DNA of 64,000 nt from Verrucomicrobiia bacterium. Its GTDB lineage: Bacteria > Verrucomicrobiota > Verrucomicrobiia > Limisphaerales > UBA1319. A program made the translations under genes and the position numbers. Below, in pieces: positions 25,850-33,129 of the stretch. The DNA lies in contig OY760937.1 of assembly GCA_963664225.1 (NCBI GenBank), forward strand, positions 4,352,001 to 4,416,000. Direction: 5' to 3'. The notes under the pieces are model-generated. The model ran no database searches. It was given only the letters and a program-made list of their open reading frames with translations, and was not told the origin of the DNA. Each line of letters begins with the position of its first letter. Positions within the stretch are counted from its first letter, which is position 1.

Positions 25850-27004
25850 CTATGGCCCGATCAATTCGATGAAATTGCCATCCGGATCCTGAAACGCGAT
25901 CAGCCGGTTCGCCCCCATGGAAAGCGGGGTTTCACCGATGGTCTTAACGCCGTATTTGGCCAGTCTCTCGAGCGCCTTGTCCGCGCTGCTTACGTAAAGC
26001 GTCAGGTAACGAAATCCAAGGGTCGAGTGAATGAAGCTTTGGTTTGGCACTTTGCCGCCAGCCGTCGGAAAGGACATCATCTTGATCCGTGTCGAGGCAT
26101 CGCCATCGGCGGCAACAAACATGCGGACAGTGGCTGGCATATTGTCGATTAGGCCGATCTTTTTGGCCACATCCGCGGTGACCGAGAATCCCTGAACCTC
26201 AGTCATGCCCAGCGCCTCAGTGTAGAACCTGGCTGATTTCTCGAGATCCGAAACTACAATGCCGATGTCGATCGTTCCCTTTGAAAAAGCAGGCGCCGGC
26301 AGGGGCTTGATCTTCAAATTGCGAAATTCGATCCGGTAGCCCTCACCTTCCAACCCGACATGGCCACTCGGCACACCACAAGCCTCATACTTCGCGGTCA
26401 CCGCGCCGTTGACCCACAGCGACAGCGTGCGTCCGCGCGCCGTGACCTCCATCGTGTTCCATTCGCCCGCCGGTTTGACCCGGTTTTCCTTCACATCCTT
26501 CTGGGTGTTAAAGAACTTTTTGGAGCCATCCACCATGGTCTCGCCAAATAGAAAACCATCCTTCGCATCCCCGAACTGGGCCTGATGCCAGAGCGCCCCA
26601 TCCTTTGAATTGCGAACATACGCCCCGCTATTATAACCGGTCTTGCCCTCGATTTTCGTATAGCAGAACTCGAAATGGAAAATCGCGTCGTCATATTCCG
26701 CGGAGGTCAACAGCATGTCGTGGCCGCCATCGCCGTCGCAAACCAGGACATTGCGAGCCGCATCCACATGCCATTGCTCGCGACCCAGCGTGCCGTTGGG
26801 CGGAACCGTTACGCGATACCAGCATTTAAGCGCATCGCCGGGCAGGATATCCTGCCAGCCTTGCGGATCGGCTTCGAGAGCACTTTTTGTTTCTGCTCCG
26901 GTGCTGACGCTTGCGGTGCCGGCCAGCAACAGGGCAAACATGCAGGAGGAGAGAATCGTCGCGAAAGTTCGCGGCGTTGAACTGATGCCATGGTTTTGTT
27001 TCAT
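25850..27004 (-). CDS. Secreted DUF1080 (3-keto-disaccharide hydrolase-like) domain fused to a VOC/glyoxalase domain
   Basis: 'NSG..VR', 'GEWNTMEV', 'FRNLKIK', then 'IGIVVSDLEKSARFY...DPDGNFIEL'. Confidence 0.8.
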   Translation of the reverse strand: MKQNHGISSTPRTFATILSSCMFALLLAGTASVSTGAETKSALEADPQGWQDILPGDALKCWYRVTVPPNGTLGREQWHVDAARNVLVCDGDGGHDMLLTSAEYDDAIFHFEFCYTKIEGKTGYNSGAYVRNSKDGALWHQAQFGDAKDGFLFGETMVDGSKKFFNTQKDVKENRVKPAGEWNTMEVTARGRTLSLWVNGAVTAKYEACGVPSGHVGLEGEGYRIEFRNLKIKPLPAPAFSKGTIDIGIVVSDLEKSARFYTEALGMTEVQGFSVTADVAKKIGLIDNMPATVRMFVAADGDASTRIKMMSFPTAGGKVPNQSFIHSTLGFRYLTLYVSSADKALERLAKYGVKTIGETPLSMGANRLIAFQDPDGNFIELIGP

Positions 27005-27154
27005 GCCCGTATTTTGAACATGCCTTGCGGGAATGCAATCTGGATTCCGCAACCGTGCGCAGATTTCCGGCATATCCGCGATTTCCTCGAAACCATTGAC
27101 CTGTTTCTTAATCTCCATACCATGGCGCTGTATTTCAATGACCCAATCATGCTT

Positions 27155-28117
27155 ATGAATAAAGCATTCCAATTTACGTTCGCCTTCCTGTCGATGGCTC
27201 TCCTCGTCGCAACGACATCGGCCGCAGCGGCGGCGCATGTTCCCGCGAATTGTTATCTCTTTTCCTATTTCCTCGGCAACGGCGAGGATGGGCTTCATCT
27301 GGCGTGGAGTGCCGATGGCCTGAAATGGGAAGCGCTCAAGGATGGCAAATCTTTCCTCACACCCATGGTCGGAAAATCGAAACTGATGCGCGATCCCTGC
27401 ATCACCAGCGGACCAGATGGCACCTTTCACATGGTTTGGACCGATAGTTGGGACAGCACCACCATCGGCTACGCATCCTCCAGGGATCTCATCACATGGT
27501 CCGAGCAACAGTCCATTCCCGTGATGAAGGACGAGCCCACGACGAGAAACTGCTGGGCGCCCGAAATCATTTACGACGCGCCCATGAAACGCTTCATGAT
27601 CTTCTGGGCCTCCACAATTCCCGGCAGATTCCCGGCAACCGAGTTGGAGGGTAAAAACGACAATAACCATCGCATCTACGCGATGACCACGGAGGATTTC
27701 GTCAAGTTCACTCCGACAAAGCTCTTTTTCGATCCCGGATTCAACTGCATCGATTCGACGATCCTGCCTTTTAACGGCAAGGCGGTCATGTTCTTCAAGG
27801 ACGAAACCAAGTATCCAACCGCGATGAAAAACCTGCGGATCGCCACGGCACCTACGATCGCTGGCCCCTACGAGGTGGAAAAAACTCCGATCACCCCTCC
27901 GGGAAGCTGGGCGGAAGGTCCCAGCGCCCTAAAGGTCGGCAACGAAGTGATTCTCTATTACGATGCCTACACGCAGCATCACTATGCGGCGTTATCTTCC
28001 CGCGATTTGCATGAATGGAAGGACGTCACCAGGGAACTATCCATGCCCAAGGGCATCCGACACGGCACCGCCTTTGAGGTTCCGGGCCCAATAGTCAAAG
28101 AGCTTCTGAAAAAATGA
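27155..28117 (+). CDS. Secreted GH43-like five-bladed propeller glycoside hydrolase
   Basis: 'YLFSYF..NGEDGLHLA', 'MRDP', 'WAPE', 'CID', 'EGP', 'RHGT'. Confidence 0.85.
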   Translation: MNKAFQFTFAFLSMALLVATTSAAAAAHVPANCYLFSYFLGNGEDGLHLAWSADGLKWEALKDGKSFLTPMVGKSKLMRDPCITSGPDGTFHMVWTDSWDSTTIGYASSRDLITWSEQQSIPVMKDEPTTRNCWAPEIIYDAPMKRFMIFWASTIPGRFPATELEGKNDNNHRIYAMTTEDFVKFTPTKLFFDPGFNCIDSTILPFNGKAVMFFKDETKYPTAMKNLRIATAPTIAGPYEVEKTPITPPGSWAEGPSALKVGNEVILYYDAYTQHHYAALSSRDLHEWKDVTRELSMPKGIRHGTAFEVPGPIVKELLKK

Positions 28118-28512
28118 TCCGATACCGGCGATTGGGAGTTTCTTGAATGCCGCGTCTGCACCATTGCTGCCACAGGACTCCGGAAGCGTTCTTTGGCTGG
28201 CACAGACTTGTGGAATTTGATCCATTTGGTAGTTTTGACACTTGTATCACAAGAGATCCTGCCTTAATTTTTTCGGCACAGCAGACACGGGATCGAATAT
28301 GAGTTGAACCTCATCCAAGTGCCCCTGTGAATGGAACTCGAACGATACCATTTCAGGAGGGTGGGGGTGGGCGCCATCAGTCGGGCCAGAATATTGATGA
28401 GGCGCAGTGAAGGTGTTTTCCGATCCGTTGCCTATTCTCACGACGGGTAGGGGATTAGCGGCTCTCACTCTTCGAGTTGGCATGTCGGGGAATACGGCTA
28501 TTTATATGAAAT

Positions 28513-31500
28513 ATGGCTAAACTCGAGACTGCGACGATGCCGGTCACCGGCATGTCCTGCGCCAATTGCGCGGGGAATATCGAGCGCAAGGTGCGCCAGT
28601 TGCCCGGCGTTGGCGAAGCTCGTGTGGATCTTGCCGGCGAAAAGCTTTCAATAACCTTTGACCCGGAACAGACGGATGTTCTGCGTGTCATCACCTGCGT
28701 TCGCGAACTGGGCTTCGGCGTTGCCACGGGCAGGACGGAACTGTTGATCGCTGGACTGCAGGGACGCGCCGATGCCGCGAACCTTTCAAAGCTGCTGGCC
28801 GAACAGCATGGGGTCGTAACCGCCAGCGTGAGCGGCGAAACCGGACGGGCCGCGCTGGAATTCATCCCCGGCATGACCGGCGTCGCCGAAATGGCGGGGG
28901 TGGTGCGTCAGGCGGGATTCGAACTTGTCCAAGACGGCAAGGCTGAAGATTTCGAAGACGTTGAGGCCAGGGCGCGCGCCGCCGAAATCATCCAGCAAAA
29001 GCGCCTGCTTCTCCTGGGCCTGATCTTAACGGTACCTCTGATCGCCTTCAGTATGGCGCGCGATTTTCGCCTGGTGGGATTTCCCCACGATCAATTCGCC
29101 ATGCTGATTCCGGCCACTCTGGTGCAGTTTGTCGTTGGATGGCAGTTCTACGTTGGCGCTTATCGCAGTCTGCGAGGGGGTGCGGCAAACATGGACGTTC
29201 TGATCGTGCTGGGATCCTCGGTCGCCTATTTTTCCAGTCTGGCCGTCACGGTCGGTCTGATCGCCAGCCCCAATGTCTATTTCGAGACCGGCGCGGCCAT
29301 CATCACGCTCATCCGGCTTGGAAAATTTCTGGAAACCCGCGCCAGAGGCAAAACCTCCGAAGCCCTGAAAGCCTTGATGGGTTTGCGGGCCAAAACCGCG
29401 CGGGTGGTTCGGAACGGTGCCGAAGTGGAGATCGGCATCGATGCCGTCTCGGTCGGCGATACCGTTGTTGTGCGCCCCGGTGAAAAAGTTCCTGTGGATG
29501 GCATCATTAGCGACGGTCGCTCGGCATTCGATGAGTCCATGATCACTGGGGAATCAATGCCCGTCAGTAAAGGTCCGGGCGATGAGGTGATTGGCGCGAC
29601 GCTCAACAGGGAAGGCATGATCCAGTTCGAGGCGACGAAGGTCGGGAGGAACACCGCGCTAGCCCGGATCGTGCAACTCGTGCAGGAGGCGCAGGCCGGC
29701 AAAGCGCCGATTCAAAAACTGACGGACGAGATTGGACGGTATTTCGTGCCCATCGTCATCGGCCTGGCGTTATTCACGTTCGTCGGCTGGGTCTGGGTCG
29801 CCCACATTGATTGGATGGGGGCCATGCTGAACGCGGTGGCGGTGGTCGTCATCGCCTGCCCCTGCGCGATCGGCCTGGCAACGCCGACCGCGATCCTGGT
29901 GGGCACGACCAAGGGCGCCGGGCACGGCATCCTCTTCAAAAACAGCGAGGCCTTGGAGCGCGCCGGGCGCGTGAGTGTCGTTTTGCTGGACAAAACCGGA
30001 ACGATTACAAGGGGCGAACCAGAAATGACCGATCTGGTCGCCGCGCCGCACCAGACCATGGACGAAGTTCTGCGCCTGGCCGCCAGTGCCGAACGGGGTT
30101 CCGAACATCCCCTGGGCCGCGTGATCGTGAAGGCTGGACAAGACAAAGGACTGCGCCTCATTGAGCCGAGGAATTTCCAGGCCCTCAGTGGTCTTGGCAT
30201 TCGCGCCACCGTGGGAGATTGCGAGGTCATCATTGGCAATCCACGTTTGATGCGCAACGAAGGCATTGGTCTTGAGGCGCTGGACGAAGATGTCACGCGG
30301 CTCCAAGCCGAAGGTAAGACTGCGATGATCGTGGCGGTGGCCACGACGGGGCGCACGGAGGCCGCGAGGGCGATCGGGGTGGTGGCGGTGGCCGACACGG
30401 TCAAGCCGGGTTCGAAGGAGGCCATTGAGGAGTTGCGCCGGTTGGGCCTCGATGTGGTGATGATCACGGGCGACAACCAGCGCACTGCCGAAGCGATTGC
30501 CAGAGAGGTCGGCATCAAGCGGGTGCTGGCGGAAGTACTGCCCGGAGACAAGGCCGCCGAGGTCAGGAAACTACAATCCGCCGACTCGACGGCCGGCCTG
30601 TCCCGCCCCCTTGTAGCCATGGTGGGCGACGGCATCAACGACGCCCCGGCGCTGGCGCAGGCTGATGTCGGCATTGCCATCGGCACCGGGACGGATGTGG
30701 CCATCGCCGCTGCGGGCATCACGCTGATGAGCGGGGACCTGCGCGGGGTGGGGCGCGCCATTTCGTTGTCGCGCGGCACTCTGGAAACGATCGTGCAGAA
30801 CCTGATCTGGGCTTTCTGTTACAATGTCGCCTTGATTCCCATTGCCGGCTACGGGTTGCTCAGCCCGATGATTGCCGCGGGCGCCATGGCGTTCAGCTCC
30901 ATTTTCGTCGTCACCAACAGCCTGCGTCTGCGCGGCTACAAGGTTCAAACCTTCGCCGCGCCCAAGCCGCTATGGCGGCAGGGCGTTGAGTTGATTCCCC
31001 GCATCCTGGCCCCGGCAGGCGCGCTGGCCATCCTGATCGTCCTGCCCATGGTGACCATGGCGGAAGGGGTGGAAATCCGGGGAGCGATTCCCGGGACCAT
31101 GACTCCACTATTGATGATGACGATGGCGCTTGCGAACGGCGTGATCTCGATCTCCTATTCCTCCATTCCGGTTTTCCTGATCATTTTCATCAGAAAGCGG
31201 AAGGACATCCCGTTTTCGTGGATTTTGGTCATGTTCGGGGCTTTTATTCTGGCCTGTGGCACCACCCATGTCGTTCATATCGTTGGTCTCTGGTGGCCGG
31301 TGGATTGGTGGCAGGCTGCAGTCGATGCCTTTTGTGCCATCATTTCCGTTACGACCGCGATCCTGGTCTGGCCATTATTGCCAAAATTGCTGGCGATTCC
31401 CAGCCCCGCCCAACTGCGTGCGGTCAACCTCGAACTGCAAAACGAGAAAGCGGTCTTGGAGCGCACGCAGAGCGAGTTGCGCAAGGCCTACGCCGAGGTG

Positions 31501-33129
31501 GAGCAGCGCGTGACGGAACGTACCGCAGACCTGGCGCGCGCCAACGCGTCCCTGCAGGCGGAAATCAAGGAGCGCCACCAGGTGGAGGAGAAACTCCGTC
31601 AGGGGAATGCCCAACTCGCCACCGCCGAGGTCGTGGCCCGGATGGGGAGTTGGCAATTGGACCTGGCGTCCGGAAGGGCCAGTTGGTCGGACAACATGTT
31701 CGCGATTTTCGATGTTGACCCGGCGCATTCCGAAGTCACCCAACTAAACTCCTTTCTCGAAACTCTCGTTCATCCCGACGACCGCGAGCGTATGTTGCGG
31801 TCCCTGGAAACGGCGCTGGCTGGCGGCCCGGCTTACGATCTGGAATTTCGCACGCGGCTGCACACGGGGGTGGAACGGATCATTCACGCCCGCGCGGAAA
31901 TCGAACGGGACCCGGCGGGCCGACCGCAGCGGTTGATCGGCATTGTGCAGGACATCACCGAGAGCAAGCAGATCGAGGCGGCCCTGCGTGCGAGCGAGGA
32001 ACGCTTTCGCCGGGCGGTTGTGGACTCGCCGTTCCCCATTTTGTTGCATGCCGAGGACGGCGCGATCATTCAAGCCAGCCAGTCCTGGTATGAGATTACC
32101 GGTTACACACGCGAGGAATTGACCACTATCGACGATTGGATGCGATGTGCTTACGGTGAACGGCGTCATCATATCAAAGCTTATATTGACCGGCTCTACG
32201 CGCTGGATCGCAAAGTGTCCGATGGAGACTACGCGATTCGCGTCAAGGATGGCTCGACGCGTATCTGGGACTTCAGTTCCGCGCCGCTGGGCAGTCTGCC
32301 GGATGGACGCCGGCTGGTCATCAGCATGGCCATGGACGTGACAGAGCGGCGCAAAGCCGAGTCGGATATTCGCAAACTGAATTCAGAACTGGAGCAGCGC
32401 GTTCGCGAGCGAACCAACCAGCTCGAGGGGGCCAACAAGGAACTCGAAGCCTTCAGCTACTCGGTGTCCCACGACTTGCGCGCTCCTCTGCGCCACATCA
32501 GCGGTTTCATGGATCTTCTGGAAAGGCATATGGGCCCGCAACTCGATGACCAGGGTCGCCAGTATATCCAGCATGTTTCAGGAGCCGCCAGGGACATGAC
32601 GCGGCTGATCGAAAGCCTGCTCAACTTTTCACGCATGGGACGGGCGCATATTCAATGGACTGACGTGAATATGGACGCGCTGGTGCAAGCCGCAATCATC
32701 ACACTTGGCCCTGCAATGGAGGGGCGAAAGATCGAATGGGAAATCAGCCCGCTTGCCCATGTGACGGGCGATCACGATTTGTTGCAGTTGGTTTGGGCTA
32801 ATTTAATTGGCAATGCCATCAAGTACACACGAGGGCGGGACCCAGCCCAAATTGCCATCACCTGCAATGTTCGGGAGGCGGCCGATTCCTCCGGCGGAAC
32901 CGGTGAGTGGATATTTTCGGTGCGCGACAATGGCGCTGGGTTTGACATGGCCTATGCGGACAAATTGTTTGGGGTTTTTCAGCGGTTGCATCGCCAGGAC
33001 GAGTTCGAGGGCATCGGCATCGGCCTTGCGAACGTCCTGCGCATCATCACGCGTCATGGCGGACGCGTATGGGCGGAGGCCAAAGTCAATGAGGGGGCCA
33101 CCTTCCATTTTAGTTTGCCGAAAAGATGA
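28513..33129 (+). CDS. Fusion protein: Cu(I)-type P1B ATPase + ETR1-like ethylene-receptor membrane domain + 2 PAS + histidine kinase
   Basis: One 1538-aa ORF: GMSCANC (28549-28569), TGES, CPC (29857-29865), DKTGT (29989-30003), [23 protein letters not shown]; then SYSSIP...[12 protein letters not shown] (31120-31410); PAS x2; SHDLRAPL (His at 32470); N/G1/F/G2 boxes. Confidence 0.9.

Follow-up and report, generated by a model that had tools for sequence, protein, structure and literature searches.

A Cu(I)-type P1B-ATPase joined in one open frame to an ethylene-receptor-type histidine kinase in a Verrucomicrobiia bacterium

Introduction

In Arabidopsis, the P1B-type Cu(I)-ATPase RAN1 (HMA7) acts together with ETR1, in which a histidine-kinase-type transmitter comes after a three-helix, Cu(I)-dependent sensor with Cys/His ligands. 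ETR1 depends on Cu(I) bound at Cys65 and His69 with femtomolar affinity (PMC6586836), and RAN1 was found to bind the membrane domain of ETR1 (PMC12586476; PMC6656775). Transfer of copper from RAN1 to ETR1 is called not resolved in a 2026 review (PMC13012798), and how ethylene receptors get their Cu(I) is an open question of plant biology. (These and other papers are cited by PubMed Central number, each for the passages that concern the point made.) The gene described here bears on this question. It lies in a 64,000-nucleotide stretch, hereafter the window, of a Verrucomicrobiia bacterium (assembly GCA_963664225.1, contig OY760937.1, positions 4,352,001 to 4,416,000), and its product combines a predicted Cu(I) pump with an ethylene-receptor-type histidine kinase. 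Whereas RAN1 and ETR1 are two separate proteins, here the two parts form one chain, connected through a ninth membrane helix. This gene had been noticed from the sequence alone (hereafter the original prediction).

Two bacterial proteins shown to bind ethylene, AzoEtr1 of Azospirillum brasilense Sp7 and SynEtr1 of Synechocystis, resemble the fused protein in having an ETR1_N domain, a histidine kinase and an adjacent response regulator. They differ from it in that they are stand-alone proteins with the sensor domain at the front, carry Asp and Lys at the positions of ETR1 Asp25 and Lys91, and have no pump in the chain.

A full-text literature search revealed no paper on a P-type ATPase fused to an ethylene-binding domain; surveys of non-plant receptors, which lay outside that search, might mention one. 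The main text of a coevolution study of ethylene receptors (PMC10266040) does not contain the word ATPase. The architecture thus appears to be undescribed, and combines two known kinds of protein with a sensor subtype of its own. The original prediction had also supposed it undescribed; this stands as far as a describing paper is concerned, but the protein is by no means unique, being common in protein collections (see below).

Results

Pump and sensor kinase in one frame

The frame of the fused gene is open over its whole length, as had been predicted, and every motif string quoted in the original prediction was found in the translation (for coordinates see Table 1). A database copy of the protein, P0002, has 1530 amino acids and is 100% identical over the region searched; it starts 8 codons further in, at position 28537.

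The pump half gave Pfam matches to E1-E2_ATPase (residues 291-470, E 5.6e-57) and to the HAD-type Hydrolase family (488-718). It scored 568.3 bits against the NCBIfam model for copper-translocating P-type ATPases, TIGR01511 (cut-off 397), and 614.9 bits against TIGR01525 (cut-off 346). The score against NF007952, the equivalog model of E. coli CopA, was 545, below the cut-off of 1316, and the fused pump is therefore not an orthologue of E. coli CopA. The closest solved chain in a PDB sequence search was 3j09_A, deposited as copper-exporting P-type ATPase A (585 bits), followed in order by 7r0g_A, human ATP7B (7xuk_A), 7si3_A and 3rfu_A. The membrane-site signature of Cu(I)-transporting P1B ATPases consists of CPC in helix 4, YN in helix 5 and MxxSS in helix 6. 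The corresponding motifs were found at residues 449-451 (CPC), 770-771 (YN) and 792-796 (MAFSS), beside the catalytic motifs TGES (345-348), DKTGT (493-497) and GDGINDAP (705-712). The cysteines of the CxxC motif in the N-terminal HMA domain are Cys16 and Cys19. By its motifs, the family model and the HMA domain this half can be classified as a P1B-1 Cu(I)-ATPase of the CopA type, transport itself being predicted; the claim of a complete P1B ATPase with intact catalytic and Cu(I) signatures was thus borne out. A second, degenerate HMA-like domain is possible in front of the core, at residues 75-140, and the alignment with the NCBIfam CopA model begins at residue 75. RAN1 has a membrane-proximal metal-binding domain without CxxC (PMC12586476), of which this segment would be a weak counterpart.

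The membrane segment behind the pump, which had been assigned to the ethylene-receptor type, matched ETR1_N (PF25487) with E 5e-30 and 104 bits (cut-off 27) over positions 2-97 of the 97-position profile; in a profile search of the bacterium's own genome it scored 111 bits and was the single ETR1_N domain. A PDB sequence search with the sensor domain gave no match at E up to 10. The coiled coil, the two PAS domains and the kinase that had been proposed to follow were recovered as a model helix (residues 965-1009) and as Pfam matches: PAS_3 for the first and PAS/PAS_9 for the second PAS domain, then HisKA (PF00512) and HATPase_c (PF02518). The transmitter is thus that of a class I histidine kinase, and a partner receiver is encoded next to it. 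In ETR1, a GAF domain takes the place of the PAS domains.

Junction and distribution of the fused form

The genome was assembled as one contig of 5.78 Mb. Contigs from two runs, X1 (record 8, 1839 bases) and X2 (record 16, 6266 bases), span positions 30625-31900 without a single difference or indel. They cover the last part of the pump together with helix 9 and the sensor domain, and show no sign of the stop or misassembly that would have undone the original prediction. X1 and X2 carry different organism labels and come from different studies; one of them may be the source of the assembly itself. At 30616-30657 the assemblies of all four runs compared break, with piles of short, very deep contigs. 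This break is a k-mer repeat effect at the GDGINDAP motif, which is common to many P-type ATPases, and not a feature of the gene.

A protein search with residues 760-1000 yielded 633 proteins of 845-2692 amino acids, and a search among shorter proteins gave 316 matches. From both searches 240 proteins were listed and classified by phmmer, and the homologue counts in this work refer to these: 114 had the full pump and the sensor, 18 were N-terminally cut and started inside the pump, and 108 had the sensor only. The 114 full-length and 18 cut proteins are together referred to as the 132 fused sequences. At least 114 full-length fused homologues were thus present among the proteins listed. In public protein collections fused members are common under the names 'heavy metal translocating P-type ATPase' or copper ATPase.

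Scanning one genome per species gave 18 loci. Pump and sensor were in one unbroken frame in all 16 that could be evaluated, the other two being cut by the contig end, and the opposite pattern, relatives always carrying two separate genes, was not seen. The locus titles name Bryobacteraceae, Acidobacteriota, Holophagales, Syntrophobacter, Geobacter, Desulfuromonadales, Anaeromyxobacteraceae, Bacteroidales, Rikenellaceae and Opitutales metagenome-assembled genomes (MAGs), and the 16 evaluable genomes represent at least five phyla (Acidobacteriota and Bacteroidota, and MAGs of Desulfobacterota, Verrucomicrobiota and Myxococcota type). Many of the hosts bear names of anaerobic groups. In metagenomes a further 12 full and 6 contig-cut fused loci were detected, again with a continuous frame. 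Over residues 150-1010, fused homologues from other phyla were 62-84% identical to the protein. Among 401 sampled genomes of the same phylum the fused form was found in the window's own genome only; 18 others had sensor domains of at most 47% identity, in which the match excluded the helix-9 part. The fused gene is thus a lineage of its own that occurs patchily in several phyla, and the patchiness suggests horizontal transfer.

Among 1.84 billion cluster representatives, 6,847 matched a 161-residue query comprising the junction and the domain at E up to 0.001, and only 36 did so at 1e-30; to judge from these numbers, the fused clade is a small branch of a large family. The helix-9 part was covered by about two dozen of the best 150 matches.

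An artefact, in which misassembly or read-through joins copA to an adjacent kinase gene without functional meaning, would have as its sole hints the occasional in-frame stops in relatives (see below). It conflicts with the two sets of contigs that cross the junction without a difference, with the recurrence of the same junction in 16 of 16 evaluable genomes and in 18 metagenome loci, and with the conservation of the linker and of helix 9. We consider it highly improbable and, as far as sequence can show, refuted. The fusion is thus neither an artefact nor a singleton, and the one-chain architecture of pump and ETR1-type domain is, on this evidence, real and conserved across phyla.

The sensor domain compared with proven ethylene receptors

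The original prediction had aligned the domain with ETR1. Here ETR1 numbering was transferred through AzoEtr1, recovered from NZ_CP012915.1. Residues D35, C75, H79 and K98 of AzoEtr1 correspond to D25, C65, H69 and K91 of ETR1, and AzoEtr1 binds ethylene (PMC11819568). In the recovered AzoEtr1 frame the four residues stand at exactly the published numbers. Over the domain the fused protein (P0001) is 46.9% identical to AzoEtr1, with which it shares the Cys/His pair and four of the other five essential residues; the Asp25 position differs. The alignment is gapless over helices 1-2 and equates Y882 with Y32, I885 with I35, P886 with P36, I912 with I62, C915 with C65 and H919 with H69 of ETR1. 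The copper ligands would thus be Cys915 and His919, aligned to C75 and H79 of AzoEtr1.

Tyr32 of ETR1 is one of seven residues essential for ethylene binding. The other six are named as essential in papers on ETR1 (D25, I35, P36, I62, C65 and H69). Six of the seven are kept in the fused protein, the exception being Asp25, at which position it has Asn875. The Asp25-Lys91 polar pair, which in ETR1 couples the binding site to helix 3, is replaced by Asn875 and Asp938. The alignment of the original prediction was therefore correct in being gapless over helices 1-2 and in the conservation of Y32, I35, P36, I62, C65 and H69, but it missed both of these replacements.

Among the 132 fused sequences the residue of the query was found in 132 at position 25 (Asn), 132 at 32 (Tyr), 131 at 35 (Ile), 131 at 36 (Pro), 132 at 62 (Ile), 131 at 65 (Cys), 132 at 69 (His) and 132 at 91 (Asp). 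In the 108 sensor-only proteins, position 25 was Asp in 87 and Asn in 19, and position 91 was Lys in 86 and Asp in 19. Since the Asp/Lys and Asn/Asp counts pair up, a change at one position goes with a change at the other. Such covariation agrees with the coupling of ETR1 Asp25 and Lys91 that Azhar et al. derived from coevolution (PMC10266040), and the contact may be kept with other chemistry. In the same study 3.67% of 1,221 sequences had Asn as residue 25, 'most commonly in cyanobacteria' (PMC10266040). Asn875 is followed by Gly876 (positions 31135-31140); the residue after the Asn is Gly in 76 and Ala in 56 of the 132 fused sequences. Asn-Gly is a deamidation-prone motif, which is absent in ETR1 D25N (PMC10266040).

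For ETR1 D25N, lowered copper binding in vitro and ethylene binding undetectable in the assay were reported, the receptor still signalling, and loss of the basic residue at Lys91 left ethylene binding at 1-6% (PMC10266040). These data bear on an explanation in which the Cys/His site binds Cu(I) reversibly, from the pump or from the periplasm, and its occupancy, not ethylene, sets the kinase; the protein would then be a transporter reporting its own substrate, like co-sensing transporters. The Asn that all 132 fused sequences have in place of Asp25 would suit such a reversible site, as D25N weakens copper binding of ETR1 (PMC10266040). On the other hand, the equivalents of Y32, I35, P36 and I62, residues that in ETR1 serve ethylene and not copper, are invariant or nearly so. 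With the evidence given in later sections also weighed, copper-occupancy sensing is in our view the main rival of the interpretation that we favour (see Discussion), and rather unlikely.

Topology, linker and helix 9

Hydropathy gave 8+1+3 membrane segments (pump, helix 9 and sensor), although not all of the eight expected pump helices passed the threshold. An extra peak was seen at residues 833-847, and the next three segments coincided with ETR1_N. The 'one extra hydrophobic helix' of the original prediction was thus found again, both as this peak and as a helix at 820-847 in an AlphaFold2 model. That model covered residues 150-1010 (overall pLDDT 72, pTM 0.60) and was used for helix limits only, the further helices in the part behind the pump being 865-895, 903-925, 932-951 and 965-1009.

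The loop after pump helix 6 is basic (R805, R807, K810, K818 and R822). The one that joins helix 9 to sensor helix 1 has neutral to acidic character, and the loop between sensor helices 1 and 2 reads RKRKD. These charges place the three loops in the cytoplasm, the periplasm and the cytoplasm, respectively. It fits this order that helix 9 would carry the chain from the cytoplasm to the periplasm, and so give the sensor its normal orientation with the N terminus outside and the C terminus inside. Hydropathy, charges and model helices agree with the three-helix topology of ETR1_N domains, and support a position of the N-terminal face of the sensor on the export side of the pump, the same geometry as that of RAN1 and ETR1 at the plant endoplasmic reticulum (ER). 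ETR1 has an N-terminal disulfide Cys pair (PMC6586836) without a counterpart in the fused protein, in which the domain is internal.

Residues S803-L804-R805 after pump helix 6 are invariant. Along one face of helix 9 runs an invariant stripe of P834, L838, L841, P845 and M849, which resembles a specific helix-packing surface. In a complex prediction of the pump core (150-815) with helix 9 and the sensor (816-975), made from a 113-row alignment, the score was 0.00, and the result was not used either way. Taken together, the gene product is most likely a 12-helix membrane protein that dimerizes through its kinase.

The fused clade and its methionine cluster

A maximum-likelihood tree was built from 234 distinct sensor domains. 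In it the 136 fused-type sequences all grouped in one clade with only two others (support 0.78), and this clade was nested in a clade of all Asn/Asp-type domains (support 0.87).

A feature that, besides the pump, sets the fused clade apart, also from ETR1, is a methionine cluster at the entrance of the sensor. M863, M868, M869 and M871 were present in 129-132 of the 132 fused sequences; M868 and M869 are among the invariant columns, as is M849 at the end of helix 9, and M846 is common. By contrast, in the 87 ordinary Asp/Lys-type domains the corresponding 14 residues contained a median of 0 Met, and two of the cluster positions were occupied by His and Trp. Within the helix limits of the model, M868, M871, N875 and Y882 follow one another on a single helix at intervals of 3, 4 and 7 residues, so M868 and M871 would share a helical face with N875 and Y882, the equivalents of Asp25 and Tyr32. 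The methionines of CusF, CusB and Ctr1 serve for transient Cu(I) binding, and a cluster of this kind would also suit a protein that reports copper occupancy.

In the domain tree the closest stand-alone kin of the fused proteins are unnamed histidine kinases, P0139-P0151, which have a leader helix in front of an Asn/Asp-type ETR1_N domain and the coiled coil of the fused clade. They are 51-58% identical and share the Asn/Asp pair, but lack the pump in the gene, and their methionine cluster is partial (median 2 Met in stand-alone Asn/Asp-type domains). No split ancestor, that is, copA beside a gene for an Asn/Asp-type kinase, was detected in the 2.3-5 kb upstream of six loci (L029, L030, L047, L048, L064 and L078). 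Near ordinary Asp/Lys-type sensor genes a P1B-ATPase was found in 0 of 55 metagenome loci.

Conservation of the pump and other pumps of the host

The motifs CPC, DKTGT, YN, MxxSS of helix 6 and GDGxNDAP, and the G and E of TGES, were conserved in all 114 full-length fused homologues. The less strict positions were T (107/114) and S (109/114) of TGES and the Ile of GDGINDAP (107/114). All residues of the membrane Cu(I) site, C449-P-C451, Y770-N771 and M792..S795-S796, were present in 114/114, and both Cys residues of the HMA motif in 109/114. To judge from these and the sensor counts, both halves of the fusion are under purifying selection. Strict conservation of the pump half would also suit a protein that reports copper flux.

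The host genome contains at least seven other P1B loci, six over the TIGR01511 cut-off and one below it, whose products are 32-44% identical to the fused pump. Two adjacent copper-type P1B-ATPase genes lie at 2841026-2845406 on the minus strand of the genome (603 and 621 bits to TIGR01511), and a third such gene at 1341569-1343380. Other copper pumps are thus available for homeostasis, which argues against a flux sensor. The metallating P1B-ATPases CcoI/FixI/CopA2 and the cyanobacterial CtaA/PacS are specialised second Cu(I) pumps, presumed to supply one particular cuproprotein of the membrane or the periplasm. The fused pump would resemble them as a specialised Cu(I) pump beside efflux pumps. 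Their clients are separate proteins, and the solved chain closest in sequence to the fused pump is the copper exporter 3j09_A.

Variants of the fused gene

The kinase of the query was matched by 96 of the 114 full-length members (phmmer), and at least three more carry a kinase by Pfam (P0065, P0071 and, with HisKA_2, P0067). Some database proteins end soon after the sensor domain, among them P0005 (996 aa), P0052 (1030 aa) and P0073 (1077 aa). Such kinase-less proteins would fit a sensor that controls the ATPase, for example by gating copper export on a membrane-soluble ligand, with the kinase as a secondary output, and the conserved linker between pump helix 6 and helix 9 would also suit such control. 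Against it stand the frequency of the kinase among the members and the nature of the two kinase-less cases inspected as DNA. In L013 (an Opitutales MAG) a TAG at L013:7547-7549 stands at the position of a coiled-coil Glu codon of the query, and the PAS and kinase domains downstream of it align with the query over 402 residues without a break. The TAG of L042, a metagenome contig, lies at L042:3702-3704, and the PAS-kinase part that comes after it is decayed, with further stops and frame breaks. Control of the pump by the sensor is, in our view, improbable, less likely than copper-occupancy sensing, as is an artefact.

In both loci the TAG falls within the coiled coil or shortly ahead of the first PAS domain, and the PAS part is still in the same frame. 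It could be a recent nonsense mutation, a sequencing error, or a split into a pump-sensor and a soluble kinase. For these two loci an independent design of pump and sensor without a kinase was rejected, since the TAG interrupts the same frame and looks like a truncation.

In P0132 (659 aa, on a 3.06-Mb contig, with HisKA_2) the first approximately 166 residues match the last pump helices and helix 9, and the rest of the pump is lacking. Its pump may have been lost secondarily, or the gene may have been called from behind a break.

Neighbouring genes

Of the 28 fused loci examined, 14 have a homologue of the receiver-only regulator, with 43-63% identity, encoded downstream and in the same orientation. 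The receiver gene was often followed by hybrid kinases or, once, by a receiver-GGDEF-EAL protein. No conserved copper-gene neighbour was found; a cupredoxin-domain gene (DsbD_2-cupredoxin, upstream) was present in one of the 18 genome loci. CusS and CopS are histidine kinases that answer periplasmic copper, with a periplasmic sensor domain, OmpR-type DNA-binding partners and linked efflux genes. None of these three features was seen for the fused gene. The partner regulator without a DNA-binding domain and the lack of linked copper-resistance genes, unlike in CusRS/CopRS, thus argue against a copper sensor of this sort.

Scanning of positions 28050-28600 for promoters and terminators gave no sites, and in the upstream 400 bases no obvious operator was seen by eye. 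Further upstream, at 25850-27670 on the minus strand of the window, lies a 606-aa open reading frame with a 3-keto-disaccharide hydrolase domain (271-455) and a C-terminal glyoxalase/dioxygenase domain (469-603). Its first approximately 230 residues are unmatched and overlap other open reading frames, and the true start is probably further in.

Table 1. Positions in the window of the fused gene, its parts and the adjacent regulator gene
Feature	Position	Strand	Evidence
Whole fused gene	28513..33129	+	single open frame, 1538 aa
N-terminal HMA domain with CxxC, residues 9-68	28537..28716	+	Pfam PF00403, E 2.3e-14
Possible second, degenerate HMA-like domain without CxxC, residues 75-140	28735..28932	+	weak: Pfam HMA E 0.11, 13 bits, below cut-off
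Cu(I) P1B-ATPase core (predicted), residues 160-806	28990..30930	+	profile matches, motifs, closest solved chain
Extra ninth membrane helix, residues 820-849	30970..31059	+	hydropathy, invariant columns, model helix
Methionine cluster at the periplasmic face (M846, M849, M863, M868, M869, M871)	31048..31128	+	specific to the fused clade
ETR1_N ethylene-binding-type domain, three helices, residues 867-962	31111..31398	+	Pfam, alignment, hydropathy, model
Conserved signalling coiled coil linking sensor helix 3 with the first PAS domain, residues 963-1040	31399..31632	+	near-invariant columns 964-1021; model helix 965-1009
Two PAS domains, residues 1057-1145 and 1163-1278	31681..32346	+	Pfam
Histidine-kinase transmitter, HisKA 1312-1376 and HATPase_c 1419-1537	32446..33123	+	Pfam, NCBIfam
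Receiver-only response regulator, 148 aa	33143..33589	+	Pfam Response_reg, E 3.8e-19; 14 bases downstream of the fused gene

Discussion

We tentatively favour the interpretation that the sensor is supplied with Cu(I) in cis by a dedicated pump in the same chain, and would report ethylene or a similar small ligand through the conserved receiver-only regulator. In this scheme the pump would take up cytoplasmic Cu(I) by way of its HMA domain and the CPC site and release it at the periplasmic face. There the methionine cluster, which lies where helix 9 ends and sensor helix 1 begins, would pass it on to the Cys915/His919 site. The metallated sensor would bind ethylene or a similar small unsaturated ligand and switch the kinase, and the Asn875/Asp938 pair in place of Asp25/Lys91 would tune affinity and release rates. 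The other P1B loci of the host would cover ordinary metal export, leaving the fused pump as a private copper supplier, like RAN1 for ETR1.

In a stronger form of this proposal, Cu(I) would be handed directly to the sensor at the outer face of the membrane along a ladder of methionines (M846/M849 to M863/M868/M869/M871, then N875 and C915/H919), and the protein would be a self-loading metalloreceptor. The Asn/Asp replacement would then make a fast-exchanging site with which soil and sediment bacteria could follow ethylene or another copper-binding gas in real time, and, by Rosetta-stone logic, RAN1 and ETR1 would use the same route of direct contact at the lumenal face. This extended version is possible, though on the doubtful side.

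Several observations weigh against loading in cis of an ethylene sensor. Asn occupies the Asp25 position in all fused proteins and the basic residue of Lys91 is missing; because the corresponding changes impair binding in ETR1 (PMC10266040), ethylene binding by the fused proteins is uncertain. For the same reason, that the fused clade has exchanged Asp25/Lys91 for Asn/Asp, the analogy with the plant system is a lead and not a proof. The pump was modelled with confidence, but the placement of the sensor in the AlphaFold model was of low confidence (pLDDT about 47-67 over model residues 640-820), and no docking geometry backs the hand-off. Ordinary stand-alone receptors of the Asp/Lys type manage without a fused or adjacent pump, as none of the 55 metagenome loci had one, and neither a copper chaperone nor any other copper gene is a conserved neighbour in the 18 genome loci. 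By sequence alone, self-metallation and signalling of copper flux are inseparable.

The fused protein offers a natural model for the copper supply of ethylene-type receptors. If loading in cis is true, it would be an evolutionary argument for direct contact between pump and receptor on the export side, and a single-chain pump-receptor would be a stable construct for cryo-electron microscopy (cryo-EM) and for the biochemistry of copper hand-off. The clade also provides natural, covarying replacements of the Asp25/Lys91 pair, the coupling of which had been predicted from coevolution (PMC10266040). For bacterial signalling it would, if true, represent a transporter-kinase fusion of a new type, and for soil and sediment bacteria a candidate sensor of ethylene or copper.

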